A DNA stretch of 63,559 nt, filler included. It is 7 parts of 7 records of this genome, joined end to end, with 100 filler letters (N's around TTAATTAATTAA, not from the genome) between each part and the next. Parts side by side here need not be neighbours in the genome. Positions count along the whole stretch, not along the records: positions 29,817 to 39,134 come from SRR20825010_102; 6 more parts are not named here. One strand, written 5' to 3'. Position 1 is the first letter of the stretch. Every line of letters starts with the position of its first letter. Shown here in pieces: positions 4,899 through 39,703 of this stretch. The translations under genes were made by a program, and so were the position numbers. The notes beneath the pieces were generated by a model that saw nothing but the letters and a program-made list of their open reading frames with translations, made no database searches and was not told the DNA's origin.

Positions 4899-6808
4899 TT
4901 AATTATCAATATTCACATTGATAAAGGTAGCAACCCCAAACCTCACTCCCCCACGTAGGAAGTTATTGTTTTCAAATCCTGCTCCCATTTCCAATCGGAA
5001 AATTCGGAATAGATTATCCAAGGAATAGCCAACTTCCAAATAATGGGGTGAATTGTCTGTTTTTAGATAATTGAAGAAGATATTCTCTCTTAGTCCTGAA
5101 AATCTCAACATCGGTAATTGAGTAAAAAGAAATTTCCTAAACTGGTAATGTACAATACCTGAGAAGTACTTAGAGTTTGTGCTGTACTTGTAGTAATCCA
5201 TAAAGCGATAATTGGAGGCAGGACCAAAGTTGGAGAAGATCGTACGATTGCCACCGAAGTGCTGAAAATCCGGGAAATACACTTGGTCATTGGACAAAAA
5301 TGCTCCTGCCGAAAGATTGAAATCCAGCTTTCCACTTACTCCAAAAGTGTAGTTATGCTGGATCCCTAGCTCCAAGTGATCAAAATCTGCCGCTGTTCCA
5401 TCACCACTAACGCCTCCAAACGCTTTATTATAAGCGAGCTTAACCAAGGGAGACCGATCATTTATAGCATACTTTCGCCCGTTTCTGATCCCGTATTTTA
5501 TTCCCGGCCTCCACTCTAGTTCGGTATTCAATTTTAGAATATCATGATCTCCAAATGATCCCGGACTTGTCTCTACATTCTCTGGCTGGTTGGAAGTATA
5601 TTCCCTTCCTTCCTTATTGTAGAAACTGTAATTATTCGTGTCAAAAAGTTCTGCACGATGAGCATAAGTCATATTAACTCGATAGGTAATACCTCCATTT
5701 ACTCGATGCGCCCAATATGCTTGCGCAAAATCCTGCTCGTATAGCTTCATGTAATTCTGTCTAAAAATCAAGGAATAAAGGGCATTTACCTGTTCGTTGA
5801 TCGGCTCTCCCCCATTGAATTGATAGATATATCTACCGCCTCTTACTCCGAATGTTGTGCCTGATATAGGCAAGGTGCTGGACCATCGGAAATCAACTTT
5901 TCCATAAAAACGATTGCTTGAAAAGCCATATCGCAACTCAGGTTCAATATTGAAGCTTTTGCGATGTGTGCTTACACTATCAGCCAATTTGGTGGATGAC
6001 TGCTTTCTGTAAAACAATCCTACTCCAACCTTGAAACCTTCAACAGTATTGAAAGAAGTCTTTGTCCAGTTTTGCTTGAATCCTATAGAAACTCCCTTAC
6101 CCATGCTATATGAAGCGCCATTCATGAAGTCCAGCGGTCTCATCTTTCTCTTAGCTTTTTGAGCTACTGAATCCACATCACTCATCTTAGCTACCTCCAC
6201 TGTCGCCAAACTATCATCCCGCTGATATCCCTCAATCTCACTCTCGGTCAGTGGAACGGGACGAATGCTGTCCCAATAAGCTTGGTCATACTTTTTGGCC
6301 ATAGAATCCACTTCATAGTAACTTTCCTGAACTACATCTGGCACTTCGAGTTCTTTCAGTGACTCCTTCTCATATTCATTCAGAAGTTTGCGATATTCTT
6401 TTCTAGTTTTAGGTTCCTCCTTAGCCAGCTGTTCCAAGGCAGATACAGACTTATTAAAAGCCACCGCATCTTCAGGGACTTCCTGTACTTTTTCATCGAT
6501 AATTTCAGGTACGACTTCCAGATCTGGATTCAGTTCTATTTCATATTCACGGGTAGAAGCCAAGTATTTGAAATTCCCTTCAAAGCCGAAAATCTTACCG
6601 CCAAAGTCATATGTATGCGTCAACGGCATCCAGACATTGTCAGCTACTGGCGCATATTGTTGCTTAGCTTGGATCTGAAACCCCAACATAGAGGTCTGCA
6701 AGTTCAGGCTATGAATCGCCCATAAATCCTCGATAATGTAGATAAAGCCTTCAAAGACCTGCTCTCCTCTTGATCTTGGGGTGACCTTGATCTTGCTCAC
6801 CATTACAT
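4899..6808 (-). CDS. DUF5686-type Bacteroidota outer-membrane protein, 5'-truncated
   Basis: FEGFIYIIEDLWAI, YWDSIRPVPLT, FNTVEG, LEVGYSLDNLFRIFR motifs; the ORF runs into the linker. Confidence 0.75.
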
Positions 6809-13769: not shown

Positions 13770-13955
13770 GTGCTTCCCGGCCCGCCGCTGCGGGTTTGAC
13801 CCTTGAACCGAAGGTTCAAGGTGGAGGCAGCAGCTTTGCCCTCAGGCTTTCCGCTCAATAGGCGGACATGCACACGGACAAGGCAATATATGCCCCCGGG
13901 TAGTACATTATCGGCAAGGGGACTTGACCCTCTGGCGCACGGGCCAGGAAGCACT
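13770..13955 (-). ncRNA. ssrS: 6S RNA
   Basis: About 185 nt with complementary termini (GTGCTTCCTGGCCCG / CGGGCCGGGAAGCAC), the CCTTGAACC-TTC-GGTTCAAGG element, TATAAT just upstream, and ssrS-ygfA synteny. Confidence 0.92.
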
Positions 13956-14359: not shown

Positions 14360-14626
14360 TCATTTCTGGTGACGCTTGATATATGCCTTCACCTGATCCG
14401 GATACCACAGCGGCCCAAGTTTGCCTGCGCTCGTTGGGATGCGCACTGCCTTCGGAAAATCCGGTTTGCAGGCGACCCGCTGTTGAACGGTAATCTTTGA
14501 TCGATTGAGATATGCGGCGATGTCATCCAGCGACCAAAGCCGCTTGGATACTTTGGTCATGCGCAACTCTTCGAGAATTGATGTTAGAAGTTCCTCAATC
14601 CTAGGCTGGGGCCATGGCTTATCCAT
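14360..14626 (-). CDS. AlpA/excisionase-like HTH protein
   Basis: LWSLDDIAAYLNRSKITV...PDFPKAVRIP...PLWYPDQV; AAGGAG RBS supports start 14626. Confidence 0.75.
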   Translation of the reverse strand: MDKPWPQPRIEELLTSILEELRMTKVSKRLWSLDDIAAYLNRSKITVQQRVACKPDFPKAVRIPTSAGKLGPLWYPDQVKAYIKRHQK

Positions 14627-15461
14627 TGCCGATCTCCTTTGCTGATGCCTGACGGAAATCTTCTGCACAGTTGGAAATGATCAGTTCGCGGGCTAGCTTC
14701 GTGACCTTGAGTGAGGCTGTGTAGTTCACGGGAACCTCTTCAATGGCAAATGCCTTGAAGATGTCTCGCACCTCGGGGTTGGCATTGAGCGACAGGATAA
14801 ACTTGCCTTTGATGCCCTCAAGCTGGGCAGCCATCCTGACAAACTCTTCGCGGCTGAACAATTCTTTGCCGTAATAATCCTCGGTGCCATAGTATGGTGG
14901 GTCGAGATAGAAGAGCGTGGTGTTGCGGTCGTAACGGCGGATGAAGTCGTCATACGGCAGCTTTTCGATGGAAACACCTGCGAGCCGCTCGTGCAGCTCC
15001 TCCAGTGCCGGGCCGAGCTTGGTGACATCGAACCTGCCGGGGCGTTTTACATCAATGCCGAAAGATCGACTTCTGACCATGCCGCCAAAGGCGACGCGTT
15101 GCAGATAGAGAAACCTAGCCGCACGCTCAAGGTCTGTGAGTGTATCGGGATCGGTGGCCTGTAGGCGCTCAAATTCTTGCCTTGTAGTAATCTGAAACTT
15201 CAGCATCTCCATGAAATGCGCATAGTGGCGCTGAAGAATGCGAAAGAAGGTGGCGACATCGCCAGACAGGTCGTTGATGACTTCGGCTTGCGGCACCTGA
15301 CTTCGACGCAAGAACACGCCACCCATGCCGACGAATGGTTCAGCGTATGTGATATGCGGCACGGTGTTGATGCGACTGATAAGTTTCGCAGCTAAGAGAC
15401 GCTTACCGCCGACATATGGCGCGACAGGTTTGATGGGCTTGATGTTGGTACATTCGTTCAT
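14619..15461 (-). CDS. Phage-type DNA adenine methyltransferase (D12/Dam family)
   Basis: PYVGGK, EPFVGMGGVF, IND, YLDPPY motifs; AAGGA RBS before ATG 15461. Confidence 0.92.
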   Translation of the reverse strand: MNECTNIKPIKPVAPYVGGKRLLAAKLISRINTVPHITYAEPFVGMGGVFLRRSQVPQAEVINDLSGDVATFFRILQRHYAHFMEMLKFQITTRQEFERLQATDPDTLTDLERAARFLYLQRVAFGGMVRSRSFGIDVKRPGRFDVTKLGPALEELHERLAGVSIEKLPYDDFIRRYDRNTTLFYLDPPYYGTEDYYGKELFSREEFVRMAAQLEGIKGKFILSLNANPEVRDIFKAFAIEEVPVNYTASLKVTKLARELIISNCAEDFRQASAKEIGNG

Positions 15462-15480
15462 GATGATGTTCCTTGGGGGC

Positions 15481-15708
15481 TTAGTAGGCTGGAAAACGGG
15501 TTTGTGAGGCCAAGTATGCGTCGAGATCGCTTTGGCGATAGCGAACGGCACGACCGAGCTTGAGAAAGCGAGGGCCAGTTCGGTAGACACGCCACTTGGT
15601 TAGCGTGGCAGGAGCGAGCCCGAGATATCGAGCCGCGTCCGGTGTCGTGAGCATGTCACCCACGACAGTACTATTGTCTCCGTTCCGGGGAGGTTTAATA
15701 GGCATCAT
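15481..15708 (-). CDS. Excisionase-like helix-turn-helix protein
   Basis: LTTPDAARYLGLAPATLTKWR...GPRFLKLGRAVRYRQSDLDAYL; AAGGAG RBS. Confidence 0.88.
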   Translation of the reverse strand: MMPIKPPRNGDNSTVVGDMLTTPDAARYLGLAPATLTKWRVYRTGPRFLKLGRAVRYRQSDLDAYLASQTRFPAY

Positions 15709-15909: not shown

Positions 15910-16572
15910 TCAAAGGATGAAGAGGAAACACGTTACCTTTTTGCCGGTGATTTCGATGCGGTCCGTGACCGTTTCAACAAGTTTTCTCTTTTTCTCAAAG
16001 GTGAAGGATTTCCACTTTTGTGAGAGGCTTTGCCCATCTGCTTTGAGCTCTTTAGGTAACGGGTAGTTGTCCAGTTGAGCATGGAAGATTTCTTCAAGAT
16101 CATCCTTGGCAATCTTGGTCCGACAGTTCTCGCACACATATTTTGATGTGTTCGATTGCACATACATCTTCTGCCCGCAGCCACAACGGACAAATCCTGC
16201 AAACAGATTGGCGACCTTGCGGGCTGGCGGGCCACTCCTCCCTTTCTGGGATTCTAGGATGGTGCTACAGCGTTGCCACAGGCCCTCAGGGACGAGCGCT
16301 TCCACCTCCTCATTTCCAAGGACGATTTCATCTTTGAGCAGGCGCGTGAGGGTGGCCAGTGTGAATAGCGCACCGTTTCGTGTGCGGTGTCCTTCAGCAT
16401 TCAGGATGTCACAGACGGTCTGACGACGCTCATGTTCTGCAAAGAGTTCGAATGCGCGTAGGCGGATTGGAGCTTCGTCCGCGTTGAGAACGAGACGTCC
16501 GTTTTCTCTTCTGTATCCAAACGGTGTGGGGCCGGTGCGAGTGTTCGTCATGCCAGAAACCTTTGAGTTCAT
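15910..16572 (-). CDS. Large serine recombinase DNA-binding fragment (recombinase domain + Zn ribbon, no catalytic domain)
   Basis: PFGYRR...EAPI, LNAEGHRTR, NLFAGFVRCGCG...YVCENC, C-terminal KRKLVETVTDRIEI. Confidence 0.75.
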   Translation of the reverse strand: MNSKVSGMTNTRTGPTPFGYRRENGRLVLNADEAPIRLRAFELFAEHERRQTVCDILNAEGHRTRNGALFTLATLTRLLKDEIVLGNEEVEALVPEGLWQRCSTILESQKGRSGPPARKVANLFAGFVRCGCGQKMYVQSNTSKYVCENCRTKIAKDDLEEIFHAQLDNYPLPKELKADGQSLSQKWKSFTFEKKRKLVETVTDRIEITGKKVTCFLFIL

Positions 16573-29716: not shown

Positions 29717-29816
29717 NNNNNNNNNNNNNNNNNNNNNNNNNNNNNNNNNNNNNNNNNNNNTTAATTAATTAANNNNNNNNNNNNNNNNNNNNNNNNNNNN
29801 NNNNNNNNNNNNNNNN
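29717..29816. other. Artificial contig linker
   Basis: N44-TTAATTAATTAA-N44. Confidence 0.99.
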
Positions 29817-29870
29817 GCGCTTTCCATCGCCAACCAGGGCCCGCAAAGCGTACTGGCCCTGTTCAGGTAA
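29817..29870 (+). CDS. Flagellin, extreme C-terminus
   Basis: ALSIANQGPQSVLALFR*, the alphaproteobacterial flagellin tail. Confidence 0.85.
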   Translation, partial: ALSIANQGPQSVLALFR

Positions 29871-29958
29871 CTAAATCCTTGGGGGATCGAGTAAACGGAG
29901 AGATTTTTCGGTAGGTAGTCGCGGGGCCTAGAACGCACGACACCTAACCTCTCCAGAG

Positions 29959-29993
29959 AAGAGGCGCTGCCGTATCCGGTAGCGCCTCTTTTT
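29959..29993 (+). terminator. Intrinsic terminator after flagellin
   Basis: AAGAGGCGCTGCCG-TATC-CGGTAGCGCCTCTT followed by T-tract. Confidence 0.85.
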
Positions 29994-30025
29994 CATCTCA
30001 GCTCTGTCGCTCTAGCGGCAATGGC

Positions 30026-30796
30026 CTACCACTCCACATAACCGCAGAAGTGTTTCTGGTCGGCCTTTTTGGCGCGGTACACCAGTTGGCTGCCACGGCC
30101 ACCATCCTTGGGGCGCAGGATCTGGTTGACCATGAAGATAAGCCGCTTGCCAACACTACCGGTCACGCTATCAAGCTTGATGGTATATTCCGAGTTTGGC
30201 TTAGCCGGGCTTTTGGGCGAAAACGTGCCTGTCCAGCTCTCACTGGCTTTAGAATATTTCATGGTGACCATTTCCGTGGTGGTATCCACCGTGCAGCTTG
30301 CGGAATCGTCCAGCGAGCCAAGGTAGGCCTTATAGTTATCAAGCGTTGGCTCTGTGCAAAACGCGATGGCCGGTGCTGACTGGCTGCGGATCACGATCTC
30401 CTCAAGCCCGGCGAGCTTTTTTTGCACCTTCATCACCTTGATGTGCCGCTCAATATCCTTCACCTCAGGCGCTGTGCACATCGGATGGTCTTGCCACTCC
30501 TCTGCCGTGCGGCTTGTGTACATGCGCAGCAGCATATCGTTCACCCGGTTGTCGCTCTTGCGGGCTGTCACACGCGTCACAAAAAAGCTGCAGTTCATAT
30601 CAAAGCCGTCGTCGATATAAGCGCAGGCTGCGGAAAGCGTGGCCGGATATGCGCTACGCTGAAGCGCCAACTCGTTGATAACAGGCGGCGCGGCACGTTT
30701 TGCCGGTGCGCTTGTTTGTGCGGCTGCTGGTCCAGCCTGAAGGGCCACAGCCAGCAATAGGCCCGCTGCTGTTATACAGCCCAATAGTCGTTGCAT
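30026..30796 (-). CDS. Secreted hypothetical protein with several cysteines
   Basis: Signal peptide MQRLLG...PAAAQ; no family recognised. Confidence 0.7.
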   Translation of the reverse strand: MQRLLGCITAAGLLLAVALQAGPAAAQTSAPAKRAAPPVINELALQRSAYPATLSAACAYIDDGFDMNCSFFVTRVTARKSDNRVNDMLLRMYTSRTAEEWQDHPMCTAPEVKDIERHIKVMKVQKKLAGLEEIVIRSQSAPAIAFCTEPTLDNYKAYLGSLDDSASCTVDTTTEMVTMKYSKASESWTGTFSPKSPAKPNSEYTIKLDSVTGSVGKRLIFMVNQILRPKDGGRGSQLVYRAKKADQKHFCGYVEW

Positions 30797-30889
30797 ACTG
30801 ATTTTCCCCACCCAGAATTTCTATCAAGAAACGGGAGTATACACAGGCGGAATTAGGCTGGCTATGACCCTTTCGGGTTATAGTTTTTT

Positions 30890-31483
30890 TCACAACTGCA
30901 AGGCGATCAGCGCCGCAAGCCAGGATAAGGCACCCGTATACCGGCGTTTTAGCGTCCAGCGGGATAAATTTCCAGTTTTTCCGGGCCTACCAGTTGGTAG
31001 GCTTCGCCGAACCTTGGCCCAGGGAATGCGGCCTCCTGTCTCTCCGTCCTGATGCCATGCGCCAAAAAATAGTATCTCCCTGTCTTCCTTGTCGGGCAGC
31101 AACAGCAGGAGGTCCAGCGTTGGCTGCATGGTGTCAATCTCGTCTGCCTGAATGCGCGCCCGGAAACGCGCCTGAAAGCTGGTGAGGCCCGCGCCCACAT
31201 ATGTGCCGCCGTCAGCCATCATTTCCGGCCAGTAAGACTGCCGCGCACGCAGGAAACCCCGCTCCCTGTCTGGCAGGCGGCGCAGGGTCCACGCTGCTGA
31301 GACAAGCCGTGCTTCCACCACCGGGATCAGGGCTTCCTTGTCCGGTCTGCTACCCCCACAGGAGGTGACAGCGCGGGCGATGTCGCGCGCGGTATCAACC
31401 AAGGCACGACGGCCAGGTCCATGGCCAGAATCACGGCCAGAATCACTGCCAGACCGGGGACCAAGTTTGCTGTGCTGGATCAT
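30890..31483 (-). CDS. Phage-related protein (DUF6362-like, possible late regulator)
   Basis: VEARLVSAAWTLRRLPD...SYWPE...IDTMQPTLDLL...PWAKV...SRWTLKRRYTGAL HTH-like tail. Confidence 0.6.
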   Translation of the reverse strand: MIQHSKLGPRSGSDSGRDSGHGPGRRALVDTARDIARAVTSCGGSRPDKEALIPVVEARLVSAAWTLRRLPDRERGFLRARQSYWPEMMADGGTYVGAGLTSFQARFRARIQADEIDTMQPTLDLLLLLPDKEDREILFFGAWHQDGETGGRIPWAKVRRSLPTGRPGKTGNLSRWTLKRRYTGALSWLAALIALQL

Positions 31484-31576
31484 GAAATTCCTTTTCTGTT
31501 GCGGGCTCTCGTACTGGCCTTGACGCTGGCCCAGCTGCCGGTGTTTTATACTTATGATTGAACTAAGGTTTATTTT

Positions 31577-32533
31577 TTAGCTTCGCCACCGCCATGCCGG
31601 CCCATATTCGTTAACAATTTCAGCCGGGATATTGGCGTTTGCGCTATGGCGGGGGTCCGGACCCAGGCCTGATGCCTCAAACACCGGATGGTCACGCCCG
31701 ATGGCCCAGTTCTGGCTCAGGTAATCCCCCCTGAACCGGCTCTTGGCGTCACCCAGGAAAAGCCGCCAGTCGTCCAAACTGCTGCTATCAAACTTGCGCT
31801 TTGGCGGCGGGGCCGGATTATCCCGCGCGTGAGCCGCACCCTTGTGCACAGCACCAAGCCTTGCGTCCCGCGCTTCCAGAATGGCGGGCGTATAATAGGC
31901 CAGTGTGCCGGGTGCCTTGCCGGTGCGCGCTTCCTCCCGTGCTCTCAGCGCCGTAATGGTGGGGGTGATGTCATGGTCTATGTCGGCGCCCGCAGCCAGC
32001 CATTCGCTCACGACCGTTCGCGCCTTCACCTGCAAACCATCACCATCAAGCCCGGCAGCAGCGGCAGCGGTTTTTACCGCTTCCCTATCTGGTTCTGGAG
32101 TCTGGTTCTGGCTTTTGGTTGGCAGGTTTTTGCTAGTCCCATTGCTAATCCCACTGCTAACCCCAGTGCTAACCCCAGTGCTAGCCCGGCTCACTTTCCG
32201 GGCTTTGGCGCGGCCACCCTTCGCCCCGTTTTGCCGGTTTTTCGCCACACGTTCTTCAACACCCCGGTATACCTCGCTCAGCTTCTTTTGCTGCCAGAGG
32301 CCACCGTCAACGATGAAAAATTCCATCAGCACCGGTTTGATCTTGCGCCACCGGGCACGAGTTACCCCAACGGTGCGCGCCAGTGTCTGGTCACAGTCCT
32401 TGAGCGCGCAACCCCTTGTGCGCCAGGCACACATCAGCAGTAGCAGGTAAGCGCCGTGCTCTTCTGCGGTCAGATGGCGGGTGTCCGCCAGATAGGCGTC
32501 AGTAAACAGCGGCAATGCGGGAAATTCAGCCAT
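31577..32533 (-). CDS. DUF1376/YdaU-family phage replication protein
   Basis: MAEFPALPLFTDAYLADTRHLTAEEHGAYLLLLM...WRKIKP...NGAKGG; GGAGG RBS. Confidence 0.88.
   Translation of the reverse strand: MAEFPALPLFTDAYLADTRHLTAEEHGAYLLLLMCAWRTRGCALKDCDQTLARTVGVTRARWRKIKPVLMEFFIVDGGLWQQKKLSEVYRGVEERVAKNRQNGAKGGRAKARKVSRASTGVSTGVSSGISNGTSKNLPTKSQNQTPEPDREAVKTAAAAAGLDGDGLQVKARTVVSEWLAAGADIDHDITPTITALRAREEARTGKAPGTLAYYTPAILEARDARLGAVHKGAAHARDNPAPPPKRKFDSSSLDDWRLFLGDAKSRFRGDYLSQNWAIGRDHPVFEASGLGPDPRHSANANIPAEIVNEYGPAWRWRS
32131..32186. repeat. Five 12-bp tandem repeats inside the DUF1376 gene (possible iterons)
   Basis: TGCTAGTCCCAT / TGCTAATCCCAC / TGCTAACCCCAG x2 / TGCTAGCC. Confidence 0.75.
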
Positions 32534-32735
32534 GGGCATTTCCTCCAATTGCCGAAGATGAAGGCAAAGCCACAGATGCGCCACATAACTGGCCACACTT
32601 CTGACCACATGTCGGCCAGCGCCAACAGCCAGAGAAGAAAAAGGGCCAACCCTGGCCCTCTTGTTTTATTACCGCTACCGCGCCCGGCTGATGCCGGGGA
32701 CAGCGCGCCGCATGAATATCATTTGACTCTCTCAT
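32526..32735 (-). CDS. Small Cys-rich ORF at the cro position
   Basis: Starts just past the operators and its stop overlaps the DUF1376 start; no recognisable HTH. Confidence 0.4.
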   Translation of the reverse strand: MRESNDIHAARCPRHQPGAVAVIKQEGQGWPFFFSGCWRWPTCGQKCGQLCGASVALPSSSAIGGNAHG

Positions 32736-32745
32736 GTTTATATGA

Positions 32746-32813
32746 TTACGATATTCGTAACTTAATGCAAGGAAAATTACGTTTAATGTAAATTATTTTT
32801 ACACTAACCGTAA
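32746..32813. promoter_or_regulatory. OR-like cluster: three TTACG-N5-CGTAA operators between divergent genes
   Basis: TTACGATATTCGTAA 32746-60; TTACGTTTAATGTAA 32777-91; TTACACTAACCGTAA 32799-813. Confidence 0.85.
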
Positions 32814-32825
32814 TGATGGAACGCG

Positions 32826-33548
32826 ATGCCCAAACAGGAATGGATACGAGCAGCCCTCAAAAAAAAGGGCTTCAAGCTTAAGGACGTAGCGGCGGCGCTT
32901 CATGTGCCCCCGCCGCGTGTTACCGACATTTTGAACGGCAAACGGGAAGTGCAGGCTGATGAGGTGGAACCGCTCGCGGATCTGCTTTCCATGAGCGCCC
33001 GATCACTGCTGCGCAGCCTGCAGGACGGCAAGGCCACCATCGTACCGGGTGACGAAGGCGCACCGCGCGTGCCGGTCATCGGCCAATTGATGGGGGACGG
33101 CACGCTAGCCCCCACCCCCAAAGGGTTGAAGTTCGACAGCGTTGCGCCGCCGCCGGACGCTGAAACCAGCGAGGGGCTGAGCTGCTTCTTGATGGGAGAC
33201 AGCTCCATGGCCGGGCTGATCAGCGAGGGCAGCTTTGTCATCACGGCTGACCCAAAGGTGCATTTTGTGCCCATCGCACCCGGCGGGCTTTATGTTTTCA
33301 AGCTGGCAGACAGCAGACATGTGCTGCGGAAATATATCCGTGACGAAAAAGGCGAAGGCTGGCTTGTGGCTGTGCCGGGGCCAGAGTTTGAAAGCGCCAT
33401 CGGATATGAGATTTTCCGCTTCACCATGCTGCCCGACGGGCTCGCCCCCAAAGGCAAGCTGCTGACAGGTGATGATATCATCGGCGGTGTGATGTGGGTG
33501 CATACCCGCATGCTGGAGCCGGAAGACGGCGCGCGCATAAAGGCCTGA
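32826..33548 (+). CDS. CI-like repressor (XRE HTH + S24-like C-terminal domain)
   Basis: LKDVAAALHVPPPRVTDILNGKRE HTH; VPVIG, GDSSM, LRKY. Confidence 0.85.
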   Translation: MPKQEWIRAALKKKGFKLKDVAAALHVPPPRVTDILNGKREVQADEVEPLADLLSMSARSLLRSLQDGKATIVPGDEGAPRVPVIGQLMGDGTLAPTPKGLKFDSVAPPPDAETSEGLSCFLMGDSSMAGLISEGSFVITADPKVHFVPIAPGGLYVFKLADSRHVLRKYIRDEKGEGWLVAVPGPEFESAIGYEIFRFTMLPDGLAPKGKLLTGDDIIGGVMWVHTRMLEPEDGARIKA

Positions 33549-33579
33549 ATAAGCGCGTGCCGGAAGGCTTGTCTACTCC

Positions 33580-34326
33580 TCAAGGTGCCGGCGGGTTTTC
33601 AGCAATCGCGCGGTTAAATGCTTCCAGCATCAGCATGGTTTTAGGCGTGCGTTTACAGCGCAAGCGGTGCGGTATCTTGAGAAAAGGTTCCTCGCTCAGC
33701 GGCACAATGGTTTTGCCAACCTCCGGCTCGTTTAATTGTGCGAGCTCCCCAAGCGGGATAGCATCCACCCGGCGAGAGCGCAGCATGGCCATAAGCACCT
33801 GAAAAGACGGCGCGTTGATCCGCTCCAGGCCACCGAGAATTGTACGACCGATAAAATCATCAGCCCCATCGATATTGCCAAAGCTGCGCAGGTCATCAAT
33901 CGATTTGAAATCGCGGTCCTTCATCACATAAATCCAGAAAGGGTTCATGTAATAGATATCTGAGCTTTGCTGGATTTCCGTGTTGACGGGAAGTGGCGCA
34001 ATAACGCATCCCACAGGGTCAGCCTGATACAGGCTGATGGCGCGTTTGAGCGGCAGGTAGCGTATCTTCACGCTCCGGCCTGCGTCCTGCATCAACTTCG
34101 CGAATATCTGCTCAGACGGGGAATTCTTCAGCTCAACACTGTCGAAACTGGCTTCATCGCTATAATAGCTGACAGCGCGGTAAAGAGTGATCTGATCATG
34201 GTCAGCCACCTCTTCCGCATACGCAGCAGAAGCCGAAAACCACAACACCACCAGGGCGCAACACATGCCCCACAGGCCTGAACGATAAGCATTACGCAAC
34301 ATCAATATCCTCGATTTATCAGTCAC
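33580..34326 (-). CDS. Periplasmic solute-binding-like protein
   Basis: Signal peptide ending AYA; YLPLKRAI, MLRSRRVDAI, C...FNRAI pattern shared with the two neighbouring paralogs; GTG 34326 chosen as start. Confidence 0.75.
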   Translation of the reverse strand: MTDKSRILMLRNAYRSGLWGMCCALVVLWFSASAAYAEEVADHDQITLYRAVSYYSDEASFDSVELKNSPSEQIFAKLMQDAGRSVKIRYLPLKRAISLYQADPVGCVIAPLPVNTEIQQSSDIYYMNPFWIYVMKDRDFKSIDDLRSFGNIDGADDFIGRTILGGLERINAPSFQVLMAMLRSRRVDAIPLGELAQLNEPEVGKTIVPLSEEPFLKIPHRLRCKRTPKTMLMLEAFNRAIAENPPAP

Positions 34327-34411
34327 ATAACCCCCACGTTCCTGCAAAAAGACTATACCACCCACACCAACAGGCACCAACAGCCATTTGGTATCGCGCC
34401 CGTCAAAATAT

Positions 34412-34463
34412 TTTCGATATTCGTAAAATATGCATTGACAAATAGTTACGTTATTCGTAATTT
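34412..34463 (+). promoter_or_regulatory. OL/PL-like sigma70 promoter overlapped by two operators
   Basis: TTGACA(34435)-N17-TAATTT(34458); operators TTTCGATATTCGTAA 34412-26 and TTACGTTATTCGTAA 34446-60. Confidence 0.85.
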
Positions 34464-34469
34464 CATCTC

Positions 34470-35210
34470 ATCAGCACCGGCAAGCACGGTGCGGTGACGA
34501 GCAGAACCCCGGACGGAGGCGGTTAGTCTTTTAAATGGGGTTTGGAAAACGCAGACAAAAAGCCTTCGCCCCCAATAAGGGCTTCGTCGTCTGCTAGCTC
34601 AAAACCCCCGAAGGTAGTGCATGGATGCGGCCCCTCCCCAATGCCGCAGATGCCAAAAACCCTTCGCGGTTACATAACCGGGCCACTGGCCCTGCAATAT
34701 ACCCTTCACAAAAGGGGGTTATGTATCGCCGCACTGCCCTGACCAGGCAGCTGGCCCCGACATGGCTTTCCCCGCCGCGGCACATCGCCCGGCGGCCCCT
34801 TCCGGAAGCCCGGGGAAAAGCCGATAGGGCCGCGTATGCGGCCACCGGCACCCTTTGCAGGCGAGCCCCCTCCCCCTCGCCTGCAAAGGGCCTTCGGCCA
34901 AAACCTCAAAATATGGAAAAAACACCCGGCCCGTTCCCAAAACCGCCTGGCCAAGCGTCATAGGGGCAGACACATGCCGGTCAGTTGCGGTTTACCCCTT
35001 TTTTTCCGCATCCGAACGCGCAGGCTTTGGTGATAGTGGTTGGCATTCTCCCACCCTTTGGACGCGCCGCTGGACCCAAAGACAGCCCCTGCGACTCTTG
35101 TTCCGTTCGGGCGACTGACCGACAGCCGGGGAGCGTGCATTTGTGCATGATGGACCTCCCGCAGCGTGCAAATTGCATCGCCCCCGGCTTCCTCCTCTGC
35201 CCGCCCGGCA
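34470..35210 (+). ncRNA. Candidate large structured non-coding RNA (may extend to about 35770)
   Basis: Many nested helices with G-U pairs on the + strand directly downstream of the promoter; no credible ORF. Confidence 0.6.
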
Positions 35211-35803
35211 CGCACGTATCGCCAACAACCAACTACCGCTTTAGTTTAGTTTTTTCACTTATTGGTGATGTGGACAGACTTCTCTTTTCACCGCCCGCAT
35301 CCATCAGCAATACTGCCTTCAGGGTCGATGCTTATACCCCATCATCGCAAACATCGGCCCGGCGGCGTCGCAACCGCAACTTGTGGACGCCAGGGGCTGT
35401 GGCTCTGGATTATGGTCGTAGACTGTGTTCATGGCCCGGCCCCCACGCCACGAGGGATCCCTCACACCAGCCCTCAACGAAAAACGGCGCCAAATTGGCG
35501 CCGCTCTCAGGGGGAAACTACTGTACTAAAATGTCTTCGTCGTGCTTGGACGAAAGTCTCGCTTGGTCTGTAACTCGGGCCTTATCTGTGGTGCTTCTCA
35601 ATCTTGGCATTTATGAGCTGTCATCACTCGGCGCCTGTACTTGGCTCTTGTGCTTGGTGCTTTACTCAGAACTTGTGATTTTAGGTAACAGTACCCGGAC
35701 GCCCCCGTCACCGGGGTTGCGATAAACTGCGCCCAGCATGCGGTAAACAGAAGATTACGGTGCTGGGCGGTAAATTATAGAGGGAAGGATTGAAGGCGTG
35801 GGG

Positions 35804-36637
35804 TCAGTCGCCTTCAGGCGGATCGGGGAAAAACCGCGGCGCAACGCCCGCACGCTCAAACAGGTCTTTCATGCCTGTGCGCACGATCTGGTTCTCAAGC
35901 AGCGCGTTCACCACACCCACAAAGGCTTCGTTCTCTGGCGTACGGTGGCACACAATGCCTATACCCACCTTCAGGATAGACAGGTCAGGGTTATACGGCG
36001 GCAGCTTTTCGCCCAAAGCCTCAAACACAAAAATATTATCCGGCAGGGAACCAGACATATAGTCCACCCGGCCTGCGCTCAGCATGCGGGCTTTGGTGGT
36101 TTCGTCTGTTGTCGGGATAAAGACCGGGTCATATTGCCCCAATATGTTAGGCAGCGCAGACCCGTTTGCATAGGCAATGGTCTTGCCTTCAAGCAGCGTG
36201 AAGTCCTGCAACGGTTCCGTGCCCGGCTTGCTGAAGATATGGCTTTCCACAAAAATCAGCGGCAGCGTTTCCACATATTCATGGGCGTTATCAATCTCCG
36301 CCCCGTTCAGAAGATGCGGGATACTGCTGGGGTAGAGGCAACTGCGGCCATGGGCTGCAAATTCCACCTTCGCGCGCTTATAGGGCTGCGGCATATACCG
36401 CTGACCACGCTGCACGCCGGTAAGCGCATATTTTACCACGTCATTATAAAAACCTGTGCCGTCGAGCGCGAGTGTCATGCCCCAACCGGTGCCAAAGATT
36501 GCATCTTCCGGGTCGGTTTCGGTCGCACGGGCGTAATATGAGGGCACCATGAGCAATGCGGCGAGAACAAGCAATAGAGTGCCAGCCCAAAGAGGCGGTC
36601 TTGTGTTTCCACTGCTCGCGATATCAAATGCCGTCAT
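35804..36637 (-). CDS. Periplasmic solute-binding-like protein
   Basis: Signal peptide; DGTGFYND, PYKRAK, CLYPS, MLSAGRVDY, IVCHR. Confidence 0.82.
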   Translation of the reverse strand: MTAFDIASSGNTRPPLWAGTLLLVLAALLMVPSYYARATETDPEDAIFGTGWGMTLALDGTGFYNDVVKYALTGVQRGQRYMPQPYKRAKVEFAAHGRSCLYPSSIPHLLNGAEIDNAHEYVETLPLIFVESHIFSKPGTEPLQDFTLLEGKTIAYANGSALPNILGQYDPVFIPTTDETTKARMLSAGRVDYMSGSLPDNIFVFEALGEKLPPYNPDLSILKVGIGIVCHRTPENEAFVGVVNALLENQIVRTGMKDLFERAGVAPRFFPDPPEGD

Positions 36638-36677
36638 TATATCATCTCTGCATTAAAGCCCCCAGGCGTGCCTTTTG

Positions 36678-37685
36678 TTACGGAGTGTTTGGTGCCGACC
36701 TTTCCACAGCATGCGTGACAGGCGCCTTTGCTGCAAGTTTATCCGCATCCATGCTTTCCCTCAGCCTCAGTGCCTCAATCGCACCAGAGGCGGGCCTCAC
36801 GGCGTTCATCTCGCCCGCAAAAGCTTCCTCATGCCAGATCCCGGCTTCAAACAGCTTGGCGCGGTATCCGGGGTCTGCGTTCATGTCCCGGATCCGCGAA
36901 TTGAGCGCATGGATAAACACAACATTCTCTTCTGAGCGGTGGCACACAAGCGATACCCCAGCCTCCAGAAACGGCATTGCGGGGTCAAACTCCGGCAACG
37001 GTTGCCCCATCGCCGCAAATACAAGCACCGCATCAGGCAGCATGGCGGTCATATAATCAACCCGGCCTGTGAGCAGCATTTGCGCCTTGTCAGCCTCGTC
37101 ATGCACGCTGATGAGCGTAGCGCCAGAACCCCTGAGCACATTTTGCATCACAGACCCTGATGGCACCGCAACGGTTTTGCCGTAAAGCTCGCCCATGGCA
37201 CGCGGCGGCGGGCCGCCTGCGCGCGAGAACAGATGGGTCTTTGTGGTAAAAAGCGGGGCTGTTTCAACAAAATCGTCCCGGTCACTTATATGCCCGCCCG
37301 CATCCAGAACATCGATGGCCGAGGGGTAAAGGCACGCCCCGGCACGGTCGAGGAACCTGGCTTTCGCCCGCTTGTAGGGCATGAGCTGATAGGAAACCCC
37401 GGCCTTCTCATCGCGCAGCAATGCATCGGCCAGCTCGTTATAAAAGCCGGTGCCATCCTGTGCGAGGGTCTGGCCCCACACGGTGGCAAACACCACCCTC
37501 TTCTCGCGCCCGGAAGCCGTTGAAGGCCCAATTTGATGATAAGCATCAGCCCGCGCCTGAACAGCGCCTGGCCCTGAATTCTGTTCTGTAGCCTGCGCTT
37601 CGTGATACGTCAGATACAGAAAGAAAAGCGCGGTCGCCCCCGACCCCGCAACAAACAATTTACGCAACAAATTACTCACCCACAC
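36678..37685 (-). CDS. Periplasmic solute-binding-like protein (tandem paralog)
   Basis: DGTGFYNE, PYKRAK, CLYPS, MLLTGRVDY, LVCHR. Confidence 0.82.
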   Translation of the reverse strand: MWVSNLLRKLFVAGSGATALFFLYLTYHEAQATEQNSGPGAVQARADAYHQIGPSTASGREKRVVFATVWGQTLAQDGTGFYNELADALLRDEKAGVSYQLMPYKRAKARFLDRAGACLYPSAIDVLDAGGHISDRDDFVETAPLFTTKTHLFSRAGGPPPRAMGELYGKTVAVPSGSVMQNVLRGSGATLISVHDEADKAQMLLTGRVDYMTAMLPDAVLVFAAMGQPLPEFDPAMPFLEAGVSLVCHRSEENVVFIHALNSRIRDMNADPGYRAKLFEAGIWHEEAFAGEMNAVRPASGAIEALRLRESMDADKLAAKAPVTHAVERSAPNTP

Positions 37686-37974
37686 CTGTTTACTCTAGGG
37701 GTTTACCTTTTGTACGGTGAGTTTCTCCCCCCGGATCAACAAACCAGCAAACCCCTTGCCTGAAAGGTTGAGGCTAGGCAGGCAAAACCACACGTGCAAC
37801 GGAAAAGCGCGGGGGACGCCCAGAAATATGTGAATTTCCGCATAAATACACGTCATAAACGCGCCAAACGATGGTTATACACCCAAAGCGCGCAGCGGCT
37901 TATCATAAGCGTATGTGCGACACTTATATTTGATATCGATTGCAGAGCTCACGCCGGACGACACGCGCGCCAGA

Positions 37975-38014
37975 ATCAAACACGTATCAAACACGCATCG
38001 AACACGCATCGAAC
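37975..38014. repeat. 11-bp tandem repeat, about 3.6 copies
   Basis: ATCAAACACGT ATCAAACACGC ATCGAACACGC ATCGAAC. Confidence 0.8.
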
Positions 38015-38052
38015 CTAGCGCACGCTCAAACCTGCCGCAGCTCAGCCTCGCC

Positions 38053-38706
38053 TCAAGCGCTCAAACTCGCCTCAAAATGCCTCAGAAGCGTGCTGTGCAG
38101 GCGGCGTTCGTCTTCTTCATGCGCACCGTAAACAAGCTGTTCCCGCGCAAGCCAGAAGGTTTCCTTGAAGGCCCGTGCGATCTTCTCCGCACCGACCGCA
38201 TGGAAACGTTCACTGCAGGATGCGAGGTGAGTGGCAAACCGGCTGGCCGCATTATCAAAGCGCAGGCCAAGGCCTTCGAAGCTGTCATCGCCTGACATTT
38301 TATGCGCGAGGTCAAGCGCACGGATAATGCCGCGCCGTTCCTCACAAAGCCGAATGAGCACGCTCACGATAATGCCAGGGGCATCATCCACAAGCGCGGG
38401 ATGGTGCGCCAGCTCGCCCTCGAGGCTTTCAAGCGTTAATTCGCACTCAAGCCCCAACCGGTCATCAAGGCAATGCAGCAGCGCCGCCTTGTCAGAAAAC
38501 CGGTTATAGAATGAACCAACCGAAGCCTCGGCCTCCCGCACGATCTCATGCACCGAAACTTCGTGCCAGTGTTTGCCTTTCAGAAGACCTTCCGCTGCCT
38601 CAAGAAACCGCATGAACGACCGACGGCTGCGACCCTGCATGGGTGCCTGCACCCACTTGCCATATAGCCACTGGCCTTCGCCCCCACTTACCGACATTGC
38701 TGTCAT
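38053..38706 (-). CDS. TetR/AcrR family transcriptional regulator
   Basis: QGRSRRS...LEAAEGLL...VSVHEIVREAEASVGSFYNRFSDKAALL. Confidence 0.92.
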   Translation of the reverse strand: MTAMSVSGGEGQWLYGKWVQAPMQGRSRRSFMRFLEAAEGLLKGKHWHEVSVHEIVREAEASVGSFYNRFSDKAALLHCLDDRLGLECELTLESLEGELAHHPALVDDAPGIIVSVLIRLCEERRGIIRALDLAHKMSGDDSFEGLGLRFDNAASRFATHLASCSERFHAVGAEKIARAFKETFWLAREQLVYGAHEEDERRLHSTLLRHFEASLSA

Positions 38707-39104
38707 ATAGTTCTCTCCATCAAGCCTCGAGCAGAGGCTCTATCAAGTTTCACCCTAAACTCATGCCAACAGCTTTCCCGGACGCACCAAACCGCGCGCC
38801 AGATCTTGCCCCTCTGACCCCAACAGCCCGAATGCGCAGCACCCAACACCGGCTCCCATCAAAAGTGACAGGCAGCACAACCGCACACACAAGGCCTGGC
38901 CATATGAACCAGAGCCAAGGCGCAGAAAGCCAATCAGGCGCGCACCCACGCACCAGGCAAAGTTCAGCCAAGCCCAAAGCTCACCGATGCTCGAGGGCAA
39001 TCAAAAGCCCACAAGCACCAAAGACCTAAAGGCCAGCAAGCCAAAGGCGGAACCCCGGCGGTCCACTGACCACAGGAAAACAAACCTCCAAAAGCCTACC
39101 GTGC

Positions 39105-39134
39105 CCCAAGAGCCTGAGACCCAAGAGCCTGAGA
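39105..39134. repeat. 15-bp tandem repeat at contig end
   Basis: CCCAAGAGCCTGAGA x2. Confidence 0.8.
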
Positions 39135-39234
39135 NNNNNNNNNNNNNNNNNNNNNNNNNNNNNNNNNNNNNNNNNNNNTTAATTAATTAANNNNNNNNNN
39201 NNNNNNNNNNNNNNNNNNNNNNNNNNNNNNNNNN
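39135..39234. other. Artificial contig linker
   Basis: N44-TTAATTAATTAA-N44. Confidence 0.99.
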
Positions 39235-39703
39235 TTCATTTAAACAAGATACATCGATATATACGGATTTACAGGTGACTTCATCCCTTGATAACAACTA
39301 CCCAGTACCATCGTGAGGTCGACGGCCGACGACGAGGGGCCCGGCCGGGCCGGGAGTGGGCGTCGGGCGGTGGGGACCACCGTCGTCTGGACAAGTGCGA
39401 GGTGACCTTCATTTCTTGTTATACTGGCTGCTCAGCGTTAAGCCGCTCGTTCGAGTGTGGCTTCAGGTTATCAGAATCTGCTCAGTCCGGCCCGTCCCCC
39501 CCGCCCGGCCGTCGGTCCGGCACGTCGTCCCCGACCATCGGCTACGCCGCGCCCGGGCCCGCTGCGGCATCCGGGCACGGCCCGGCCGCTCAGCCGCTTT
39601 GTCTGAGTTTGTGCCCACGTCTTCGAGGCTCCGGTTGATATGAATACAAAATAGAGTAGGCCGGCCCTTGGTTCTGAGTCAGGGGCGAGTCGACGCAAGC
39701 TTG

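Follow-up and report, generated by a model that had tools for sequence, protein, structure and literature searches.

A previously undescribed structured RNA locus restricted to Kordiimonas, adjoining a CI-like repressor module

Background

Large covarying multi-domain RNAs are rare in bacteria; OLE, GOLLD, ROOL and raiA each opened new work, and most of them have no known function. GOLLD and ROOL are often prophage-associated, and the large ornate non-coding RNAs generally are multi-domain molecules of unknown biochemical function. On a smaller scale, HK022 put consists of two short stem-loops (~70 nt) that act in cis on RNA polymerase, and the AbcR small RNAs (sRNAs) are ~110 nt long. Here we describe a structured RNA locus in a 1.5-kb gene-free gap (34304-35803) between two minus-strand genes of a Kordiimonas chromosome, contained in a stretch of 63,559 nucleotides, filler included, the whole of which is called the window below. 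The locus is previously undescribed and genus-restricted, and the probability that it is a conserved, covarying, non-coding, single-copy RNA locus of the plus strand, without an Rfam match and transcribed from the promoter P1, is put at about 60%.

The locus resembles GOLLD, ROOL, OLE, raiA and HEARO in its length of hundreds of nucleotides, its covarying multi-domain fold, and its combination of conserved loops and junctions with variable stems. It differs from them in matching no Rfam family, in being confined to one alphaproteobacterial family, in its operator-bearing promoter and in its modular build with an inserted open reading frame (ORF). As in the lambdoid CI/Cro arrangement, replication-type genes and a helix-turn-helix (HTH) repressor gene are transcribed divergently and 15-bp operators are repeated, one of them overlapping a -10 box; here, however, the second promoter precedes a non-coding RNA and not early genes, no phage structural or lysis genes were found within 20 kb, and no peptidase S24 domain was detected in the 240-aa repressor, for which Pfam gives HTH domains only. 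With HK022 put it shares a structured RNA just downstream of a putatively repressor-controlled early promoter, but it extends over ~1 kb and, since the next genes are convergent, has no downstream plus-strand genes to antiterminate into.

Self-assembling ornate RNAs, as presented in the available part of PMC12286853, form a further comparison class. In the available parts of PMC5461406 and PMC4152367, the AbcR sRNAs of Brucella and Agrobacterium pair with mRNAs of ABC-transporter binding proteins, and the former names two seed motifs, the hairpin-loop motif CUCCCA and the single-stranded motif GUUCCC. Compared with AbcR (alpha-r15), the present locus is likewise alphaproteobacterial, carries both seed motifs in its conserved core (domain X), and adjoins genes whose relatives two sources name solute-binding proteins; the order M1, M2 of AbcR is reversed here, with the motifs ~115 nt apart inside a 260-nt multi-helix core, and neither the size nor the family model agrees, with no Rfam match even at E<=10. 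The parallel may serve as a lead to how the RNA works, not as evidence of membership.

Folding, strand and coding potential

The plus strand of 34470-35210 folds with a minimum free energy (MFE) of -322.9 kcal/mol, compared with -282.4 +/- 5.7 for dinucleotide shuffles (n = 20; z -7.1; 0/20 as good), while the minus strand reaches z -1.1, with 4/20 shuffles as good. Among 150-nt segments starting at 34375-35125, the plus strand had z <= -1.45 in 10 of 11 and lay below the minus strand in 10 of 11, although the minus strand also beats its shuffles somewhat in some of them. This local signal spans ~34375 to 35275 and ceases beyond. The original prediction had described a ~740-nt RNA built of nested helices, with G-U pairs pointing to the plus strand and no credible ORF, and these points are borne out. 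All of the listed helices are present in RNAfold or in RNAalifold with the closest relative (G002); 34474-79/34487-92, 34551-56/34589-94, 34851-65/34876-90, 34978-84/35115-21, 35012-18/35104-10 and 35124-31/35182-89 were recovered by both. The global MFE structure of 34470-35230, laid on the two-sequence alignment, has 32 broken pairs, mostly in long-range helices that we distrust. In the covarying helices of three alignments, G.U/U.G pairs outnumber A.C/C.A (19 v 5, 17 v 0 and 17 v 3; in total 53 v 8) and the fold z-scores agree; the RNA is therefore encoded on the plus strand.

The GC-rich DNA here carries many spurious ORFs, and no Pfam domain was found in those of the gap. Relative to the 81%-identical G002, the gap has 21 indels, 19 of which have lengths not divisible by three, and its substitutions are spread evenly over the three phases (79/85/85 by position modulo 3). 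The frame-breaking indels and even phases, together with the Pfam result and the lack of a remnant of ORF1 (an ORF of some relatives, see below), reject a coding or pseudogene origin. A REP/MITE-like repeat is likewise rejected, as a search of the 4.2-Mb genome with 430 nt of the hairpin-rich part returned only their own position (next best E 0.24), and the strand evidence and a separate minus-strand terminator reject untranslated regions (UTRs) of the flanking genes.

At gathering thresholds, Rfam 15 gives no match in the RNA region, the sole match in the window being a 6S RNA at 13770-13953. At E<=10 no score on 34200-35900 exceeded 21 bits, where the thresholds are 55-71. Six related loci had no match in the homologous region; a tRNA and an unrelated cobalamin riboswitch were all that they gave. 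ARAGORN found no tRNA or tmRNA. The locus thus falls into no Rfam 15 family (GOLLD, ROOL, OLE, HEARO, raiA, 6S, tmRNA, RNase P, introns, riboswitches and alphaproteobacterial sRNAs among them), in agreement with the earlier statement that it is not recognisable as rRNA, RNase P, tmRNA or an intron. The gap has no BLAST match in the phage and plasmid collections, and no description of the locus was found in the literature searched, which covered Kordiimonas non-coding RNAs and large non-coding RNAs such as GOLLD and ROOL, motif lists in supplements lying outside its scope.

Homologues and the conserved core

Homologues, 15 distinct sequences in all, come exclusively from genomes of the Kordiimonas family and from metagenome contigs. 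By BLAST the region is present in 8 of 45 family genomes and in 8 of 201 from an order-wide sample. An anchored pattern search built from two conserved motifs gave 24 matches in 185,579 species genomes, eight of them Kordiimonas contigs, and 39 in metagenome contigs, where five are true homologues (two identical over the core). A covariance model added three more divergent genomes (11/45 in the family); in the order sample it found 8/151, all the same family members. The gene order TetR - p335 - p277 - [RNA] - (secreted protein) - CI - DUF1376 - DUF6362 is kept at all 14 loci examined for context, which upholds the proposed association with the CI/DUF1376 module. Three blocks are conserved and collinear, namely 34406-34503 (operators, promoter and first hairpin), 34931-35190 and 35236-35445, and the motifs are collinear in all homologues. 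Identity to G002 is 90-97% in 60-nt windows of the RNA, compared with 79% over the whole 8-kb module. Of the ~740-nt extent first proposed, the span agrees with that of the first of two putative RNAs (RNA-1, below), whereas universal conservation is limited to 34931-35190 and 35236-35470.

The features of the core are the following.

34931-35190, plus strand: domain X, the conserved core; covariance model R1 matches 34931-35188 at 43.5 bits, E 5e-11
34933-41: motif GUUCCCAAA
35049-57: loop motif CUCCCACCC
34978-84/35115-21: helix H1
34986-90/35006-10: helix H2, with a C-rich loop
35011-18/35104-11: helix H3
35124-31/35182-89: helix H4
35190-35201, plus strand: pyrimidine tail UCCUCCUCUGCC after H4, anti-Shine-Dalgarno-like in sequence

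The unpaired motifs of the core (GUUCCCAAA, CGUCAUAG, CAGACAC, the C-rich loop, CUCCCACCCUUUGGA, CCUCCUC and UACCCCAUCA) are conserved, and the stems between them vary. Relative to G002, substitutions are either compensatory or outside stems: AAGCCUU/AGGGCUU becomes AAGCCUA/UGGGCUU, GGCCGC/GCGGCC becomes GGCCA/UGGCC, and in the hairpin 35139-35178 no pair is broken, three being changed on both sides and three on one. Over wider distances H1 reads GGUCAG/CUGACC or AACCAG/CUGGUU, H2 reads GCGGC/GCCGC or GCAGC/GCUGC in two separate clades, and H4 reads GCCGGGG/CCCCGGC or GCCGGAA/UUCCGGC; cognate H4 arms pair at -25.5 kcal/mol v -17.8 for non-cognate ones.

Model R1, for which six clade II sequences and a structure of our choosing were used, finds the other nine sequences at the homologous place (E 2e-46 to 1e-4). 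In the resulting 15-sequence alignment 92.7% of 670 cells pair, compared with 79.8 +/- 0.8% when the 3' letters are shuffled (0/500 as high). Changes on both sides occur in 29 of 51 pairs (12.7 when shuffled, 3-9 when the partners are slid by 1-3 columns), with a covariation score of 0.281 (0.109 and <=0.054, respectively). An alignment of 12 sequences gives 92.5% pairing, 24 of 51 pairs and a score of 0.257. Covariation among homologues beside similar repressors, which the original prediction had named as a check, is present, as judged from the R1 alignment and its two controls and not from R-scape.

CCUCC trails H4 in most relatives, and one of them (G152) has a U7 run there; going by sequence, the pyrimidine tail may mark the end (terminator) of RNA-1. 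The 5' strand of H3 has two exclusive pairings, CGAAGG/CCUUCG and CCCGA..GGC/GCC.UCGGG, that are possible in clade II, G125 and G152, so that its partner is CCUUCG or GCCUCGGG, both of which are preserved (e.g. L019 5147-5235). The second pairing was modelled because it is the only one existing in clade I, and the dual pairing may be an alternative-conformation element.

Promoter, operators and repressor

The RNA lies behind a promoter whose operators are of the type also seen at the neighbouring repressor gene.

34435-34463, plus strand: promoter P1, with -35 TTGACA (34435-34440), a 17-nt spacer and -10 TAATTT (34458-34463), from sequence
34446-34460: operator O1 TTACGTTATTCGTAA, covering the P1 spacer and the start of the -10, from pattern search
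34412-34426: operator O2 TTTCGATATTCGTAA, 9 nt upstream of the -35, from pattern search; kept in relatives
32746-32760 (perfect, TTACGATATTCGTAA), 32777-32791 and 32799-32813: three palindromic operators between the DUF1376 and CI-like genes
32826-33548, plus strand: CI-like repressor gene, 240 aa, N-terminal HTH_3 (Pfam HTH_3 1.5e-7; PHROG phrog_4 'transcriptional repressor' 3.5e-13)

The five sites, three at the CI-like promoter and two at P1, have the form TTWCG-N5-CGTAA, so that the same palindrome stands at the repressor's own promoter and overlaps P1. At <=1 mismatch this pattern gives 15 strand-matches in the window where 6.25 are expected, a number that 0/100 shuffles reach, and the operator regions cross-match between loci. 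The same promoter/operator layout was read in G125, G152, G116, G083 and G057, and the stem of the 5' hairpin after the promoter covaries (CACCG/CGGUG here, CCCGG/CCGGG in G125). Repression of P1 by the CI-like protein is a reasonable inference from the shared palindromes and the common layout. An automated promoter scan called neither P1 nor the internal candidate P2 (below), as its -10 criterion is stricter.

The promoter TTGACA-N17-TAATTT with two operators was thus described correctly in the original prediction. Its view of the RNA as repressor-gated agrees with the operators matching those at the CI-like promoter, the control itself being suggested by operator sequence; an S24 autocleavage domain, which would point to SOS induction, was not detected in the repressor. 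The phage setting stands in so far as CI and DUF1376 are phage-type, whereas a prophage is not supported. The 22 proteins within 20 kb on either side are flagellins, two-component systems and other cellular proteins, so the surroundings are chromosomal and not those of a prophage.

The variable 5' domain and inserted ORFs

Between promoter and core lies a region of quite different evolutionary behaviour.

34471-34930, plus strand: lineage-variable, strongly folded 5' domain of RNA-1 (RNAfold, RNAalifold, local z-scores)
34474-79/34487-92: 5' hairpin, followed by several hairpins with C-rich loops
34851-65/34876-90: perfect 15-bp stem with loop CCCCCUCCCC
L016 5366-5779 (plus strand), G128 C42:26762-27148 and G070 C1:59078-59356: ORF1 of relatives, with motif LRGWFQEFF and no known family

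These 460 nt hold most of the helices first noticed, yet align only with the closest relative, where RNAalifold finds compensatory changes; a similar 5' hairpin and a hairpin with a long C-loop were read in G125, G152, G116 and G083. Across genomes the stretch from promoter to domain X measures 350 to 1240 nt. Three genomes only (G057, G128 and G070) carry in it, downstream of the putatively repressor-controlled promoter, a conserved 138-aa ORF1 (65% and 60% identity, open frames) whose end abuts domain X in G128. The other 11 of 14 core-bearing loci are without it, and no remnant was traced in the window genome, G002 or G083. In K. aestuarii (L016) the insert also holds a cobalamin riboswitch (5678-5883, plus strand, 105 bits), a truncated 4HBT thioesterase (5920-6162, plus strand) and a (CCCATG)n run at ~6150-6205, and looks like a captured fragment of another locus.

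G116 (L029 9690-10200, minus strand of the locus) has CI/DUF1376/DUF6362, operators, promoter and ~450 nt of non-coding hairpins with the C-rich loops CCCCCUCCCCCCC and CUCCCCACC, and lacks domain X, the 3' domain, p277/p335 and TetR. It is a natural variant with the 5' domain only.

The 3' domain and the number of RNAs

A second conserved part follows domain X.

35236-35320, plus strand: AT-rich, sequence-conserved block with CGCTTTAGTTTAG and ACAGAC (alignments); candidate P2 region or single-stranded RNA
35255-68: palindrome/hairpin H5 TCACTTATTGGTGA, a 14-bp palindrome with invariant arms
35309-14, plus strand: -10-like box AATACT
35321-35470, plus strand: 3' domain, candidate RNA-2 (fold z, per-clade RNAalifold, arm test)
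35322-30/35352-60: helix H6, with conserved loop UAUACCCCAUCAUCGCAAA
35364-69/35386-91: helix Hg'
35393-99/35437-43: helix H7
35480-35502, minus strand: intrinsic terminator of the convergent p335-p277 operon, GGCGCCA/TGGCGCC hairpin (35486-35502) then T5

The AT-rich block is conserved by sequence and not by covariation. Its -10-like box, which reads TATAAT in G125 and TATAAG or TATATA in clade II, stands 7-9 nt before H6 in every sequence. The 3' domain folds at z -3.5 on the plus strand (0/200 shuffles as good) vs -1.6 on the minus strand. Its arms occur as GGGUCGAUG/CAUCGGCCC, GGGCCAAU/AUUGGCCC, GGGUCGGC/GCCGGCCC and GUGCCAAGCU/AGCUUGGUAC in H6, and as GGGGGCUG/CAGCCCCC vs GGAAGGCUGUGA/UCACAGCCUUCC in H7. 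RNAalifold gives 35 pairs with three double changes in clade II and 35 with five in clade I, and in an alignment-free test cognate arms pair better than non-cognate ones (H6 -16.9 v -10.7, H7 -23.9 v -17.5 kcal/mol). With default filters, model R2 (3' domain, clade II) adds only reverse-strand matches, at clade II loci. The minus-strand terminator, kept with loop changes in G002 and clade II, forms the right boundary of the RNA locus.

Four sequencing runs were compared. Run X14 has contigs covering 34480-34751 (the deepest, depth 8) and 35321-35470, run X19 has one covering 34569-34815, and run X18 has no matching contig; that X14 and X19 leave 34923-35264 and 35607-37800 uncovered says nothing either way. 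One X14 contig, at depth 2, bears the adaptor-like GTATCAACGCAGAGTACATGGG immediately 5' of A35321. We take this to be the SMART template-switch oligo of cDNA libraries, which would mark a plus-strand RNA 5' end, and the A35321 end is a hint of such a start and only that, given the single contig and its depth. In this contig 35470 is joined to 35323 through a shared CAG, a backward jump that could reflect reverse-transcriptase switching between 150-nt RNA copies, an RNA that is circular or concatemeric, or an artefact of assembly. A loose end of X14 at 34336 was rejected as a start site, since it sits on TGGGGG and is probably due to template-switch strand invasion, and a minus-strand -10 candidate TATAGT (34352-57) does not fit that end.

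In view of the ORF1 inserts, the coreless G116, the -10-like box before H6 and the X14/X19 contigs, the locus is probably modular, with two RNAs favoured over one. RNA-1 would start at ~34471 from P1, pass through the fast-evolving 5' domain into domain X, and might end at H4 and the UCCUCCUCU tail near 35200, about 730 nt in all here. RNA-2, of ~150 nt (35321-35470), would probably start at A35321 from an internal promoter with -10 AATACT.

A possible role

Binding of the CI-like repressor to O1 and O2 would shut P1, so that the RNA would appear only when the repressor is inactive. Unpaired C-rich elements recur along it, as hairpin loops (CGCCCCCAAUA, CCCUCCCCAAU, CCCCCUCCCC, UUUACCCCU7, CUCCCACCC and UACCCCAUCA) and as single strands (GUUCCCAAA, with GUUCCC, and CCUCCUC). 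The conserved loop CUCCCACCC contains CUCCCA (35049-35054), and GUUCCC is found at 34933-34938, replaced by AUUCCC in several relatives. By analogy with AbcR-type sRNAs we tentatively suggest an RNA that would act in trans, its C-rich elements base-pairing with G-rich ribosome-binding sites and thereby masking them; candidate targets would include the neighbouring periplasmic-binding-protein-like genes. Raw duplex energies of the C-rich motifs, computed without a background, reach -17.7 kcal/mol at the u261 start and -16.5 at that of p335, and in 7 of 9 genomes inspected UGGGUG is retained 8-10 nt ahead of the p335 start.

The size, the elaborate junctions and the GNRA insertions (below) leave room for a ribonucleoprotein (RNP) scaffold or a self-assembling ornate RNA instead. 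On a more speculative and rather doubtful reading, an ornate RNA of ~0.75-1 kb would be the cargo of a domesticated phage-type switch, serving as a multivalent C-rich trap or guide for ribosome-binding sites or a partner protein, or as a GOLLD/ROOL-like particle, with the 150-nt sRNA as a second arm. Should the C-rich loops be seeds, the anti-Shine-Dalgarno sRNA principle would have here a relative of unusual size and multivalency; otherwise the RNA is a candidate for structural study. The system has the advantages of cultured, non-pathogenic marine carriers (K. gwangyangensis DSM 19435, K. aestuarii JCM 17742, K. lacus S3-22 and K. lipolytica CGMCC 1.15304), of a simple putative on/off switch made of two operators and a neighbouring repressor, and of natural variants that dissect it: the 5' domain alone in G116, the ORF in three genomes and the GNRA insertions.

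Alternative explanations

A number of observations speak against the reading proposed here. ORF1 separates the 5' domain from the core in three relatives and G116 keeps promoter and 5' domain without the core, so that 'one RNA' is not a fixed unit. The sequences are few (15) and related, and the alignments behind the pair counts were fitted to the structure of the model, which favours pairing. Four of them (G057, G128, G070 and L057) have an inserted GNRA hairpin GGGCCGAGGGAUCGGC at which the R1 match ends ~40 nt early, and the 3' strand of H1 and H4 of these four are probably aligned to non-homologous stems. MAFFT with RNAalifold across both clades gave 16 pairs and 0 pairs in two runs; MAFFT misaligns the variable stems, for which reason per-clade folds and covariance models were used. 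Model R2 reaches clade I only at 6.9-10.9 bits (E 0.85-5.6, filters off). Most genomes have a poor U-tract at H4, and downstream of the 3' domain no plus-strand terminator can be made out. None of the sequencing runs recorded as RNA contains the region, X14 and X19 being only guessed to be RNA, and as these are assembled contigs of depth 2-8, strand and ends are weakly supported. As to the role, the abundance of C in the loops may be no more than a consequence of the strand's C>G composition, and the duplex energies to neighbouring starts are raw values that lack a background.

The main rival to two RNAs is a single primary transcript of ~1.0 kb, running from P1 to the hairpin at 35486-35502 as one large ornate RNA, in which 35321 would be a processing site or reverse-transcription stop and the AT-rich block a functional single strand or tertiary contact and not a promoter. 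This we regard as a minority possibility. The parts are collinear and co-inherited in 14 genomes, and tetraloop insertions of GNRA type (GGGA, GCGA) are a usual mark of RNAs that make tertiary contacts. RNAalifold also finds long-range pairs, in clade I between GUUU (35243-46) and the ACAGAC/ACAAAC block around H5, and in clade II between the 5' CGCUCGU and GCGCGUG just before H5, closing domain X; these are, however, invariant or not common to both clades. The -10-like box is fixed 7-9 nt before H6 in all sequences, with TATAAT in G125, and the adaptor-tagged 5' end lies exactly 7 nt after the box, both of which speak against the single transcript.

A cis-regulatory origin is unlikely. On this reading the region would be a long leader or 3' UTR of protein genes: it would precede the 138-aa ORF1 as its leader, domain X would form the 3' UTR of that ORF, and what is seen here would be a remnant after loss of ORF1. 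G057, G128 and G070 do keep ORF1 between the 5' domain and domain X, abutting it in G128, and the G057 insertion carries a cobalamin riboswitch, but the 11 of 14 core-bearing loci without ORF1 keep the core, its compensatory changes and 90-97% local identity. There is no plus-strand gene after the RNA either, the neighbours being convergent.

Less probable still are hairpins acting at the DNA level: they might form a single-stranded replication origin, serve in recombination or packaging, or present arrays of palindromes to proteins of the phage-derived CI/DUF1376 (primosomal-like) module. The match of the DUF1376 protein to PHROG 'primosomal protein' families would suit such a role, as would the invariant arms of the 14-bp H5 palindrome and the AT-rich block conserved in sequence without covarying. 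The strand-asymmetric folding and the 53 v 8 excess of G.U over A.C fit RNA, or plus-strand single-stranded DNA only; moreover, helices covary while loops stay conserved, cDNA-like contigs cover parts of the locus, and the module is chromosomal with cellular flanks.

The view that nothing functional is present, only chance GC-rich hairpins, REP-like repeats, UTRs of flanking genes or a decayed protein gene, could draw on the many spurious ORFs and on the minus-strand segments that fold somewhat better than shuffles, but is already largely refuted by the single copy, the z of -7.1, covariation against two controls, conservation above that of neighbouring genes without conservation of frame, and the minus-strand operon having its own terminator at 35480-35502.

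Neighbouring genes and other observations

Gene calls near the locus were fixed by comparative translation.

Left of the gap, minus strand: a 261-aa uncharacterised protein (u261), a DUF6362 protein and a DUF1376 'primosomal-like' protein
33580-34302, minus strand: gene of a secreted 240-aa protein
35804-36637 and 36678-37685, minus strand: two paralogous genes (p277, p335)

The CI-like gene is divergent from the DUF1376 gene. The RNA locus points away from the secreted-protein gene and towards the p277-p335 operon, beyond which, on the right side of the gap, lies a TetR gene. The minus frame of the paralogues has 92% protein identity to G002 vs 61% for the overlapping plus-strand ORF. The products of the secreted 240-aa, p277 and p335 genes look secreted or periplasmic and have no Pfam family. 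Of the 35 relatives of the 277-aa protein almost every one comes from Kordiimonas or an unnamed contig, and the solute-binding names mentioned above belong to this family, p277 itself being without a Pfam match. The 240-aa and 335-aa proteins share similar MLR(N/K) N-termini.

The piece at 29818-39135 is identical to a stretch of the chromosome of a Kordiimonas sp. metagenome-assembled genome. The window as a whole consists of unrelated pieces stitched by N-runs around TTAATTAATTAA, with joints at 29738-29817 and 39136-39235, and the GC content at third codon positions (GC3) of ORFs shifts between ~0.2, 0.4 and 0.7 from piece to piece; genes across joints are therefore not true neighbours. Different pieces carry the 6S RNA at 13770-13953 (minus strand; Rfam RF00013, 97.5 bits), and a serine-recombinase fragment and a D12 adenine methyltransferase at 15910-16572 and 14619-15590 (both minus strand).

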